From: Escherichia coli
GTDB taxonomy: Bacteria > Pseudomonadota > Gammaproteobacteria > Enterobacterales > Enterobacteriaceae
Reading direction: 5' to 3' (one strand)
DNA: 64,000 nt
Assembly: GCF_050920415.1 (NCBI RefSeq)
Contig: NZ_CP169309.1
A model generated the notes under the pieces. It was not told the origin of the DNA. It saw nothing but the letters and a program-made list of their open reading frames with translations, and searched no databases. Positions 44,181 to 46,097 of this stretch are shown piece by piece. The translations under genes and the position numbers were made by a program. Within the stretch, counting starts at the first letter, position 1; each line of letters starts with the position of its first letter.

Positions 44181-44496
44181 GGCCTGCCTCACTGTTTAAC
44201 GGAAAAATGTGTAAAACACATTAACCGTCCGATCTTGCTTAAGCAATTGGTAGCCAGAGACATAAACACGAGGTAATAAGAATAAACAGGAGGAAAGGTG
44301 AAAAGAAACGATAAAATCCTCCATTACGGAGGATTAAATTGATAATAAATCGGCTAAATCCCACAACTTACAGCAATTTCTCTATTTTTTTAATTAATCC
44401 TAAAATAGCGAGCTCTCACATTTAGAATAAAATTCTATATTAAATAAAAAATACAGAATAAACCAGACATCAATGCCTGACCTATTCTGCATCCAG

Positions 44497-45441
44497 TTAG
44501 CGTTTGCAAATTGAGACTAATTGCTCTTCCATCCACTGATGGCCTTTGTCGCGTCCGGCAGCTTCATGCCAGGAGAGATAACAGGTTCTGCTGTTGTGTT
44601 TTAATGGCAGCGGTAATACCTGTAACTCTAAAGATTCAGCGAACTCTTCAGCCAGCCAACGCGGCGCAATAGCGACCAGATGCGTTTGCGATACCACGCT
44701 CAGTACGCTCATCATTGCCATGCCCTGATACGCGATACTGGCTTGCTTGTCTACCGTGTCATACCACGGTTGACTAAATGACGCGAAACGATCGAGCGAA
44801 ACTGCCGCATGTTGTTCGTTATAAACATCATGTTTCAGTAACGGGCCTTTAATTGTTGGATGATTTTTGCTGGCTACCAGCACCATTTCATCTTTAAATA
44901 ATGGCACACTGGTAAATTCAGGACGATGGAAGTCTTCATAACTAATCACAAACTCCGTTTCCTGATAACGCAGCTGATGTTCAGTGTTCTGATTTAATGA
45001 AGACTTGAACATAACATGTATATTTGGCGCAGTTTGCTCAATGTGATTATATATCTGCGAGGTCAGAATGCTGTCTAACGGGCTGCAAACACAAAGATGA
45101 AATACACGTTCACTGCTCGCGGGTTCAAAACCTGAACCTGGCAATTCATTTTGCACTAATTGCAATGCCTGACGAACTGAACCAAAAAGTTGAAATGCGC
45201 GAGCAGTCGGTTGAATGCCACGGCCATAACGAACAAAAAGCTCGTCATTAAACATCACCTTCAGGCGTGCAACCGCGTTACTGACCGCAGGTTGCGACAT
45301 CCCCAGAACATGAGCGGCACGGGTGATGTTTTGCTCCTGCATCACGGCATCGAAAACGGTTAATAAGTTGAGATCGACCATGCGTAGCTGTGGTTTGCTT
45401 AACTCCGCCGTCTCTGGTTGATCTGTTTGTACCTCTGGCAT
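44497..45441 (-). CDS. leuO: LysR-family global regulator LeuO
   Basis: ORF 44497..45525; start taken at ATG 45441 ([27 protein letters not shown].., 314 aa); flanked by long AT-rich spacers. Confidence 0.9.
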
Positions 45442-46097
45442 ACTTAACTCCACTGTCACACTTAACTCCCTTTCCCTTATTGGAATGCAGAGAAATAATC
45501 CTCGAGAATATGATTTATCATGCATATAAAATAAGAAAAAGGAAAATGAGAAAAATTAGGAAAACATAAAGATACGGGTTCTTATAAAAACAGAACCCAT
45601 TGCCAAGTAAAGAGTCATTTACCGCAGCATAATAATCCATAATGTTTTTGTTGCGAAAACAATCTAATCATAACTACCGCGAATACTCAATCATCCACAA
45701 AATGGATTAAATGTGCTTTTTAATAATTAATTTATATGTTTAATGCATTAATTCTTAACATTAATCGAACAATAATATTCACCAAATGAATATCAAAAAA
45801 TTAGCAAAATATATAATTCAATACAAATCATCAAGATAGGTTTTGTACGCGTGCATTTTATCCCCCTTTTCCTCGTTGATTAGATGCAAAAATTTATTCT
45901 GAAATATGTCAACCGATGAAAAGCGTCGGTGGTTAAGCAGAAATTAATATCGCTTGTTTTAACCACCGCAGCACAATTAGCTAATTTGACGAATGCAGAA
46001 CTCACTCTGGCGGAATGTTTTTATTGCGTCAGGGTTGACATCCGTTTTGGTATCCAGTAACTCTAAAAGCATATCGTATTCATCTGGAGCTGATTTA

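Follow-up and report, generated by a model that had tools for sequence, protein, structure and literature searches.

Which of the two long AT-rich spacers that bracket leuO takes part in silencing this gene, and what does the other one do? H-NS and StpA, bound upstream of leuO, silence this gene, and a promoter relay has been described at its locus (PMC5025477, PMC3950696, PMC4264507, PMC6797219, PMC10981669). H-NS occupancy in vivo and derepression of leuO in hns stpA mutants have been reported for K-12 and Salmonella, and counter-silencing by LeuO itself, by BglJ-RcsB and by neighbouring transcription has been published. 2-Isopropylmalate, the product of leuA, was reported as a LeuO effector (PMC12494820), and leuO is mentioned in passing in PMC3688515 and PMC9765446. 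A preliminary description of a 64,000-nucleotide stretch of Escherichia coli DNA (contig NZ_CP169309.1), referred to here as the window, took the A/T tracts of both spacers to be preferred H-NS nucleation sites in such a relay.

Identity of the locus

We started with the genes. The open reading frames and the RefSeq annotation of an identical stretch give the order ilvI-leuO on the minus strand, with leuO divergent from leuL-leuA (Table 1). The leuO product scored 571.9 bits against the NCBIfam LeuO equivalog NF007063 (cut-off 262) and is identical to K-12 LeuO at 311 of 314 residues. The spacer boundaries of the preliminary description are exact: they are set by the ilvI start codon at 44180 (minus strand), by the two ends of leuO and by the leuL ATG at 46098. 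The region is the enterobacterial ilvIH-leuO-leuLABCD regulatory locus in its canonical form, carrying an ordinary allele from an E. coli lineage about 4% from K-12, and both of its spacers are textbook control regions that were already known and that occur throughout the enteric bacteria. Elsewhere in the window hofC is intact (codon 240 is TGG, not TAG); a near-identical RefSeq genome annotates it as a pseudogene.

Table 1. Features of the ilvI-leuO-leuL region, with positions numbered from the first letter of the window.
Feature	Position	Strand	Description
ilvI	42456-44180	-	Acetolactate synthase III large subunit, 574 codons; ORF and RefSeq annotation of an identical stretch
ilvI-leuO spacer	44181-44496		316 bp
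Candidate ilvIH core promoter	44222-44247	-	Blocks TAACCGCT and GGCAAT (plus strand), kept in at least 90% of 76 species
yabR-like micro-ORF	44298-44342	+	14 codons, VKRNDKILHYGGLN; residue 11 is R in K-12
Second hairpin with T-rich tail	44315-44335	-	Escherichia-specific, overlaps yabR; -11.5 kcal/mol, z -3.7
Lrp-consensus match	44423-44437		TAGAATTTTATTCTA, one mismatch, best of the 64 kb; the ilvIH promoter blocks lie about 200 bp downstream
leuO intrinsic terminator	44440-44494	-	21-bp stem and U-run directly past the stop codon; -22.4 kcal/mol, z -5.7
leuO	44497-45441	-	LysR-type regulator, 314 aa, GC 0.463
leuO-leuL divergent spacer	45442-46097		656 bp; longest and most AT-rich gap of the window
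leuO ribosome-binding region	45447-45458	-	ACTCCACTGTCA on the plus strand, conserved
Candidate proximal leuO promoter (P2) core	45507-45528	-	AATATGATTTAyCATGCATATA, kept in at least 80% of 79 species
Candidate BglJ-RcsB box	45552-45574	-	TCTTTATGTTTTCCTAATTTT on the minus strand, kept across genera
AT-rich core	45575-45968		394 bp, GC 0.305; proposed H-NS/StpA filament platform (role from the literature)
Hairpin	45576-45598	-	GGGTTCT-N9-AGAACCC; -12.6 kcal/mol, z -3.9; lineage-specific, weaker in K-12
Palindrome 7-N5-7	45775-45793		ATATTCA-CCAAA-TGAATAT, perfect; one mismatch in K-12
Conserved block	45969-45984		CAGCACAATTAGCTAA; conservation within the spacer peaks in its CAGCACAAT part, kept in at least 90% of 79 species
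leuLABCD promoter region	46032-46076	+	-35 TTGACA at 46035-46040; conserved block TATCCAGTAACTCTAAAAGCATATCG
Leucine operon leader and attenuator RNA	46084-46233	+	Rfam RF00512 (Leu_leader), 147.5 bits (gathering score 50), full length
leuL	46098-46184	+	RefSeq annotation
leuA	46277-47848	+	2-isopropylmalate synthase

Base composition, A/T tracts and predicted curvature

Both spacers are strongly AT-rich, as had been claimed: the GC content is 0.342 in the ilvI-leuO spacer and 0.323 in the leuO-leuL spacer, clearly below the coding background of 0.537, compared with 0.527 in the window as a whole and 0.433 in the other intergenic regions. They are the most AT-rich among the intergenic regions of the window that are at least 100 bp long, with z-scores of -4.1 and -5.6, respectively, against windows of the same length. 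Outside the locus no 656-bp window was as AT-rich as the leuO-leuL spacer (lowest GC 0.373), which also holds the 100-bp GC minimum of the window (0.15, at 45718-45817), while 0.4% of the 316-bp windows matched the ilvI-leuO spacer, the lowest of them (GC 0.310) in the pdhR-aroP gap. That gap is nearly as AT-rich overall (GC 0.348, 100-bp minimum 0.21), so AT-richness alone cannot single out the leuO locus. The spacers had further been described as the largest non-coding stretches, which holds for the leuO-leuL spacer in terms of length; the ilvI-leuO spacer ranks only sixth, behind mraZ-cra (600 bp), pdhR-aroP (540), araC-araB (338) and lpdA-aceF (324) as well, and it carries an annotated 14-codon ORF whose K-12 counterpart, YabR, has been detected as a protein (PMC6001520).

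Next, we looked at A/T tracts and shape. Runs of at least four A or T occur 2.5 and 3.2 times per 100 bp in the ilvI-leuO and leuO-leuL spacers, against 0.87 in the window; the repeated tracts noticed earlier are thus three to four times denser than in the window, but they show no significant excess over dinucleotide-preserving shuffles of the same spacers (z 0.2 and 1.9). Predicted curvature behaved differently from composition-matched sequence. We used a wedge model, which passed a sanity check on phased A-tracts, and it gave means of 30.2 and 23.7 degrees for the two spacers against 17.6 for the shuffles, none of the 300 shuffles reaching the observed value in either case. In this model the highest mean of the window falls in the ilvI-leuO spacer and the highest peak lies at 45800. 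AA/TT periodicity near 10.5 bp was weak in the spacers, the strongest periods being 9.0 and 11.25 bp.

The proU-type high-affinity H-NS nucleation motif, TCGATAAATT, is attributed to Lang et al. (2007). Neither spacer contains a match to it with one mismatch or fewer, and the five matches found in them with two mismatches are the number expected from AT-rich composition. Any H-NS nucleation in these spacers would therefore use composition and shape rather than the motif.

The ilvI-leuO spacer: terminator, micro-ORF and probable ilvIH promoter

The ilvI-leuO spacer had been proposed as an H-NS nucleation site, but terminator-like hairpins downstream of leuO and the Lrp-activated ilvIH promoter explain the spacer better. 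Two such hairpins fill 76 bp of it. In the species alignment, judged by eye, the stem of the leuO terminator appears to be kept with changes on both arms. Conservation of yabR is confined to Escherichia, and its start codon is lost in one of the loci (L007).

The rest of the spacer resembles an Lrp-dependent promoter region. Its Lrp-consensus match, the best in the window, is only partially conserved across genera. Matches window-wide (78) do not exceed the number given by chance (65 +/- 10), and the other sites upstream of ilvIH are visible only as conserved blocks, among them CAG/ATTTTT blocks. A strong Lrp ChIP signal has been reported at the start of ilvI (10.1101/276808). The two conserved blocks near ilvI probably represent the ilvIH core promoter, with its hexamers placed approximately. 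We suggest that this spacer is not primarily a silencer and would consist of the leuO terminator, the second hairpin, yabR, and an AT-rich Lrp array with the ilvIH core promoter.

The leuO-leuL spacer: two conserved ends and an AT-rich core

The most conserved element of the leuO-leuL spacer, CAGCACAATTAGCTAA, lies towards leuL. Its distance to the leuL -35 element is 65-66 or 54-57 bp, two values one helical turn apart, and it resembles an Lrp site with two mismatches. An Rfam search of positions 43500-46800 with E-values up to 1 returned the leu leader and nothing else in the spacers.

At the other end, the ribosome-binding region is conserved, which supports the annotated start codon of leuO. 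A consensus promoter scan gave fewer sites than shuffled sequences did (2 vs 5.8), and promoters were therefore placed by conservation and spacing. The candidate P2 core was assigned in this way: its location agrees with the distance of 57 bp between start site and BglJ-RcsB box given in PMC3950696. The candidate box itself lies where that paper puts it; the core consensus wwTTCykA is matched by TTTTCCTA at 45564-45557 on the minus strand, and the flanks match the bgl box CTTTATaaaTTCCTAAaaTT, which was itself located at the position calculated from the paper. Both assignments depend on spacing and similarity and are best regarded as probable. With the ribosome-binding site, the proximal core promoter and the box would occupy at most about 130 bp from the leuO start codon.

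Between these ends lies the AT-rich core. In 79 species it stays within 313-397 bp and a GC content of 0.26-0.39, although sequence identity between genera is close to random. The perfect palindrome within it may be the core of LeuO site I, as it fits the description in PMC6698644, and its half-sites are identical to those of the palindrome ATATTCA-N5-TGAATAT in the cas3-casA gap of K-12 (at 2884420). In the species alignment the palindrome is conserved in Escherichia only. Across 57 species the P2 block and the leuL -35 element are 494 +/- 12 bp apart; helical phasing over this distance gave a resultant length of about 0.5, a value without clear meaning among species that are related to one another.

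Conservation of the locus

Synteny was found in 80 of the 80 species loci recovered from Enterobacteriaceae, with LeuO identities of 73-98%; 79 loci show leuA and 79 show ilvI, and the two incomplete loci end at contig ends. The leuO-leuA interval measures 747-941 bp in these species (median 813) and 835 bp here. Within E. coli the locus is present in 5,400 of 5,426 genomes. Compared with K-12, the spacers diverge by 5.7-5.8% and four-fold degenerate sites in the genes on either side by 10-14.5%, a sign of constraint on the spacers.

A model for control of leuO, and its alternatives

Our preferred reading, to which we give a probability of about 0.85, is that this is the canonical ilvIH-leuO-leuLABCD control locus with an H-NS/StpA-silenced core and three routes of relief, in which the ilvI-leuO spacer is mainly a terminator and an Lrp-regulated promoter (see also PMC5320599). 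The leuO-leuL spacer would be a divergent control region made of a leuL promoter and attenuator end, a leuO promoter end and the curved AT-rich core of about 390 bp, on which H-NS and StpA would polymerise and turn leuO off. Silencing could be relieved by LeuO, binding at its own palindrome and at the leuL promoter region with enhancement by 2-isopropylmalate; by BglJ-RcsB; or by negative supercoiling from transcription at the ilvIH and leuL promoters, the promoter relay. If the conserved blocks are read as promoters, those of ilvIH and leuO are about 1.3 kb apart and those of leuO and leuL about 0.5 kb. The actions of H-NS/StpA, LeuO, BglJ-RcsB and Lrp and the coupling by supercoiling are taken from the literature, and presumably operate in the same way on this strain's own sequence. 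The preliminary description had called the locus the classical promoter-relay region of enterobacteria; the literature does place a relay here, but its experiments were done in Salmonella Typhimurium leu-500/topA, not in E. coli.

The alternative that we consider fairly probable in its own right concerns the ilvI-leuO spacer, which would be AT-rich as an Lrp nucleoprotein array with terminator-like hairpins and not as an H-NS nucleator, leaving the leuO-leuL spacer as the only silencer. The Lrp-consensus match, the conserved blocks around it, the ChIP signal at ilvI and the 76 bp of hairpins described above all favour it. The high mean curvature predicted for this spacer speaks against it, as do genomic SELEX studies in which many Lrp sites overlap H-NS sites, and because of that overlap the two roles are not exclusive. 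This view is largely absorbed into our preferred reading. Far less probable is that the spacers are AT-rich only in the way that bacterial intergenic DNA with promoters generally is, and serve no dedicated function in silencing. Every intergenic region in the window is AT-richer than coding sequence, the pdhR-aroP gap comes close to the leuO spacers, tract density tracks composition and the strong H-NS motif is absent; however, the leuO-leuL spacer falls below any other 656-bp window in GC, its core keeps AT content and length in 79 species despite turnover of sequence, both spacers exceed all shuffles in mean predicted curvature, in each of the 81 loci compared leuO itself has a higher AT content than the genes beside it, and published genetics show repression of leuO by H-NS/StpA.

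Two further alternatives carry very little weight. It seems highly improbable that the long spacers hide unannotated genes for small proteins or small RNAs. The ilvI-leuO spacer does contain yabR, whose K-12 homologue is expressed, and several ORFs of 30-43 codons occur in the leuO-leuL spacer, but yabR is absent outside Escherichia and has lost its start codon in L007, and the Rfam search returned the leu leader alone. The leuO-leuL core is unconserved between genera and therefore preserves neither an ORF nor an RNA structure; hidden genes in that spacer were rejected on these grounds. We give almost no credence to the idea that leuO, together with its AT-rich flanks, arrived as an islet by horizontal transfer and is silenced as foreign DNA. 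The GC content of leuO is about 7 points under that of its neighbours, and acquired AT-rich DNA is a typical H-NS target, but order, orientation and spacer sizes are the same in all 80 species loci, and leuO is listed as core genome (PMC6797219). Horizontal acquisition was rejected in view of this synteny, of the lack of a patchy distribution and of the near-universal presence of the locus in E. coli.

Research on this locus, including H-NS/StpA silencing and counter-silencing, goes back more than 25 years, and our results have little weight as a discovery. What they add is a base-level map of the conserved and non-conserved parts of the spacers in 80 species, and a recasting of the ilvI-leuO spacer, which is not among the largest gaps, as a probable Lrp promoter region with terminator-like hairpins and a micro-ORF. 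A core that keeps its length and composition and not its sequence is a clean natural example of an indirect-readout constraint and could guide spacer swaps. Tentatively, and with more doubt than confidence, we suggest that the core of about 390 bp is selected for length and composition as a structural spacer, setting how large the H-NS filament becomes or over what distance the divergent promoters are coupled by supercoiling, and that CAGCACAATTAGCTAA is a further regulator site; that it is a known site for LeuO or Lrp is just as likely.

Comparison with known systems

The closest counterpart is the ilvI-yabR-leuO-leuL-leuA region of E. coli K-12 MG1655 (b0074-b0077, b4726; NC_000913.3 83,529-85,630), which is collinear at 94-97% identity and has the same gene order, orientation and order of elements. 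LeuL is identical, and the BglJ-RcsB box, the P2-like block, the leuL promoter and the terminator align base for base. The two regions differ by about 4% overall. The spacers are 656 and 316 bp long here vs 659 and 317 bp in K-12 and carry 52 substitutions, and the strain-specific indels sought by alignment are four single-A deletions, at 44202, 45718, 45794 and 45846. The core of the box reads TTCCTA here and TTCCGA in K-12, YabR differs by R11G, K-12 has one mismatch in the LeuO palindrome, and the hairpin beside the box is weaker there.

The promoter relay of Salmonella Typhimurium (Fang & Wu 1998; Chen et al. 2001-2005, cited in PMC4264507 and PMC6797219) involves three transcription units arranged as they are here, and an AT-rich silencer of 72 bp has been described there between leuO and leuABCD. 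The leuO-leuA interval of two Salmonella enterica subspecies measures 820-827 bp, similar to that found here, and the AT-rich core and promoter-proximal blocks are conserved. However, the core cannot be aligned confidently, and the corresponding alignment position lacks the LeuO palindrome of Escherichia.

In E. coli, the H-NS-silenced promoters of bgl and cas (casA) share the regulators H-NS/StpA, LeuO and BglJ-RcsB with this locus, which contains close sequence matches to both the BglJ-RcsB box of bgl and the LeuO palindrome of cas. Those loci are cryptic or accessory, whereas leuO belongs to the core genome, sits between biosynthetic operons and encodes a regulator that acts on its own gene. 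The proU-type H-NS nucleation sites share with the leuO spacers an AT-rich, curved context, and spreading of H-NS from a nucleation region is proposed for both; they differ in their motif, to which the leuO spacers have no match with one mismatch or fewer.

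Identity and composition of the leuO locus

The boundaries of the ilvI-leuO gap (spacer 1, 44181-44496) and of the divergent leuO-leuL gap (spacer 2, 45442-46097) given in the preliminary description are exact, and its assignment of the locus to a silenced regulatory region was right. The leuO product reaches 572 bits with the NCBIfam LeuO equivalog and agrees with that of E. coli K-12 MG1655 at 311 of 314 positions, the gene order is collinear with K-12 ilvI-yabR-leuO-leuL-leuA, and the silencing context comes from the literature. Window positions 42600-47700 are identical to RefSeq genome NZ_CP169399.1, where the same gene names are annotated. 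Rfam searches with E-values up to 1 found a full-length leucine leader/attenuator (46084-46233) and no other RNA family in or near the spacers.

Features of the leuO locus and small RNA matches elsewhere in the window
Feature	Position	Strand or direction	Evidence or remarks
ilvI start	44180	-	ORF and RefSeq annotation
Two conserved blocks	44222-44229, 44242-44247		just upstream of ilvI; at least 90% of 76 species
14-codon ORF (YabR homologue)	44298-44342	+	opposite strand to leuO
Second hairpin	44335-44315	leuO direction	Escherichia only
CAG and ATTTTT blocks	44371-44389		conserved
Lrp-consensus match	44423-44437		one mismatch; best of the entire window
leuO intrinsic terminator	44494-44440	leuO direction	21-bp stem, -22.4 kcal/mol, z -5.7, then U-run
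leuO	44497-45441	-	ORF and RefSeq annotation
leuO ribosome-binding block	45447-45458		conserved
P2 block	45507-45528		shared by at least 80% of 79 species; putative core promoter
BglJ-RcsB-like box	45552-45574		leuO strand reads TCTTTATGTTTTCCTAATTTT; conserved
AT-rich core	45575-45968		sequence poorly conserved
Block CAGCACAATTAGCTAA	45969-45984		upstream of leuL promoter
leuL promoter -35, TTGACA	46035-46040	+
leuL ATG	46098	+	RefSeq annotation
tp2	6811-6924	+	Rfam, passes gathering score; aceE-pdhR gap
naRNA4	18198-18275	-	Rfam, passes gathering score; yacG-mutT gap
STnc40	18782-18851	-	Rfam, passes gathering score; mutT-secA gap, into secA 3' end
PssrA	24498-24587	-	Rfam, passes gathering score; ftsA/ftsZ junction

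Both spacers are strongly AT-rich, as had been proposed: GC is 0.342 in spacer 1 (316 bp) and 0.323 in spacer 2 (656 bp), compared with 0.537 for coding DNA of the window, 0.527 for the entire window and 0.433 for other intergenic regions (z-scores of -4.1 and -5.6 relative to every window of equal length in the 64 kb). Outside the locus the lowest 656-bp GC is 0.373, and the AT content of spacer 1 is reached by just 0.4% of 316-bp windows, the lowest in GC lying in the pdhR-aroP gap. The AT-richest 100 bp of the 64 kb (GC 0.15) begins at 45718 in spacer 2, and the third- and fourth-ranked stretches also fall within the two spacers. Spacer 2 is indeed the longest gap, but spacer 1, likewise claimed to be among the largest non-coding stretches, is only sixth; longer gaps include mraZ-cra (600 bp), pdhR-aroP (540 bp), araC-araB (338 bp) and lpdA-aceF (324 bp). 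Nor is spacer 1 simply non-coding, since it holds a 14-codon ORF whose K-12 homologue, YabR, was found as a tagged protein (PMC6001520). Conservation of yabR was not seen outside Escherichia, and the start codon is gone in one Escherichia-like genome.

The A/T tracts reported earlier have three to four times the window-average density but show no excess over dinucleotide composition (500 shuffles; z 0.2 for spacer 1 and 1.9 for spacer 2). Predicted curvature favours the preliminary description for both spacers: in a wedge model, whose implementation behaved correctly on phased and unphased A-tracts, mean curvature exceeded that of all 300 composition-matched shuffles, and the top peak of the 64 kb is at 45800. 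The pdhR-aroP gap (7734-8273; GC 0.348, 100-bp minimum 0.21 at 7935) comes close to the leuO spacers in AT content, and by the logic of the preliminary description it would be an equally good nucleoid-protein candidate.

Regulatory elements in the two spacers

Published work (PMC5025477, PMC3950696 and PMC6698644) describes two leuO promoters, distal P1 and proximal P2, and shows that H-NS and StpA silence the gene through its upstream region, that BglJ-RcsB activates P2 and that LeuO autoregulates. Salmonella promoter-relay studies, as summarized in PMC4264507 and PMC6797219, place a defined H-NS nucleation region in the leuO-leuL spacer and describe how LeuO forms a barrier against the spread of H-NS; leuO is also counter-silenced via supercoiling by transcription placed upstream (PMC10981669). 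The conserved box in spacer 2 has the published BglJ-RcsB core wwTTCykA and closely resembles the bgl BglJ-RcsB box CTTTATaaaTTCCTAAaaTT, which was found in K-12 at the position computed from the paper. In PMC3950696 the box of leuO stands 57 bp upstream of the P2 start site, a distance that predicts a start near 45500-45506, and we infer that the adjacent P2 block is the core promoter. Inside the AT-rich core lies a perfect 7-N5-7 palindrome, ATATTCA-CCAAA-TGAATAT (45775-45793), with the same half-sites as the perfect palindrome of the K-12 cas3-casA gap; it fits the LeuO core site as PMC6698644 describes it in words, and is probably such a site. With up to one mismatch allowed, spacer 2 has six palindromes of this kind, compared with 1.7 +/- 1.3 in shuffles. 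A hairpin, GGGTTCT-N9-AGAACCC (45576-45598, minus strand; -12.6 kcal/mol, z -3.9), immediately precedes the BglJ-RcsB box in the leuO direction, and other genera lack it; in principle it might cause pausing or termination of transcripts that come from a distal promoter.

Spacer 1 is sufficiently accounted for by known functions, namely the Lrp-regulated ilvIH promoter and terminator-like hairpins downstream of leuO, and a role for H-NS there is no more than possible; that both spacers nucleate H-NS, as had been proposed, is not established. The two blocks next to ilvI read as a putative ilvIH core promoter, Lrp ChIP is reported to give a strong signal where ilvI starts, and the direct Lrp targets listed include leuO (10.1101/276808, PMC5320599). 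The strong leuO terminator directly adjoins the stop codon, and its stem is apparently kept with both arms changed (species alignment, by eye). Other micro-ORFs annotated in gaps of the window are a 28-codon 'fruR/shl operon leader peptide' (41864-41950, minus strand, cra-ilvH) and the 14-codon yacM (16537-16581, minus strand) in the guaC-coaE gap, which has the second-highest predicted curvature peak (16498).

Conservation across species

With one genome per species we recovered 80 loci (LeuO identity 73-98%). The arrangement is the same in all 80, leuA or ilvI being unseen in one locus each because of a contig end. The leuO-leuA interval spans 747-941 bp (median 813, GC 0.35-0.46). The gap between leuO and ilvI comes in two lengths, about 307-330 bp or 366-403 bp, apart from a few loci where it is larger. 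In the coding DNA on both sides GC is 0.52-0.60, and leuO is more AT-rich than its flanks in 81/81 loci.

The segment aligned to the AT-rich core stays within 313-397 bp in length and 0.26-0.39 in GC, even as its identity to the window drops to 0.2-0.6. Where both anchors were found, in 57 species, the P2 block and the leuL -35 are 494 +/- 12 bp apart. The most conserved stretch of spacer 2, kept in at least 90% of 79 species, is the CAGCACAAT part of CAGCACAATTAGCTAA, a block similar to an Lrp site (two mismatches). Its CAGCAC lies either 65-66 or 54-57 bp from the leuL -35, two spacings that are one helical turn apart. A core that keeps length and composition without sequence, and a deeply conserved CAGCAC block with helical-turn-quantised spacing, are mildly new, as comparative observations; it is rather unlikely that they reflect something so far undescribed.

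One locus, L007 (NZ_JAATUR010000005.1), is labelled Escherichia coli SCPM-O-B-8794. It has 82-89% identity to the window over leuO, 5' ilvI and both spacers, far below the 94-97% of K-12, and 94% identity over leuA; the label looks wrong, or the strain a different Escherichia species.

Other features of the window

The 1,179-bp sugar exporter gene setA, which in K-12 lies between sgrT/sgrS and leuD, is absent (50959-51065), leaving just 107 bp between leuD and sgrT; SgrS is intact (Rfam, 229 bits). hofC (14101-15303) is intact, with TGG at codon 240, whereas a near-identical RefSeq genome has TAG there and annotates a pseudogene with an internal stop. The name of PssrA ('plasmid-encoded Shigella sRNA') sits oddly with a match on the chromosome, at a junction of cell-division genes.

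Comparison with the K-12 locus

The lineage of the window is rare: among the 5,401 E. coli records that match, only 2 have at least 99% identity over 44100-46200. What separates it from its closest RefSeq genome, MFDS1022581, is four changes of a single base each and, near 54083 in thiP, a 15-bp in-frame repeat copy. Among 24 full-length matches sampled across the 5,401 records, lengths were 2,101-2,106 bp for a 2,101-bp query. Rare strains lack the region; in one of them, 1162T7, an IS1-associated deletion extends from leuO to near araC. This urinary isolate (L090, NZ_CP051661.1) has an IS1 where the 3' end of leuO would lie, and two sugar-metabolism genes take the place of leuO, leuLABCD and the genes that follow as far as the vicinity of araC; it would presumably be auxotrophic for leucine.

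Divergence from K-12 is a uniform ~4% across ilvI, leuO and leuA, coding and non-coding alike. The spacers differ by 5.7-5.8%, less than the four-fold degenerate sites of these three genes (10-14.5%), and are thus under overall purifying selection; their length changes are four single-A deletions.

The window sequence has the anatomy, composition and predicted shape that match published H-NS/StpA silencing, and leuO would, judging from sequence, be silenced here as in the established work; its AT-rich flanking control regions are already known. The K-12 locus is the closest known system and differs by point changes: the LeuO palindrome, perfect in the window, has one mismatch in K-12, the BglJ-RcsB box reads TTCCTA rather than TTCCGA, YabR carries R11G, and the hairpin at 45576-45598 is stronger in the window than in K-12.
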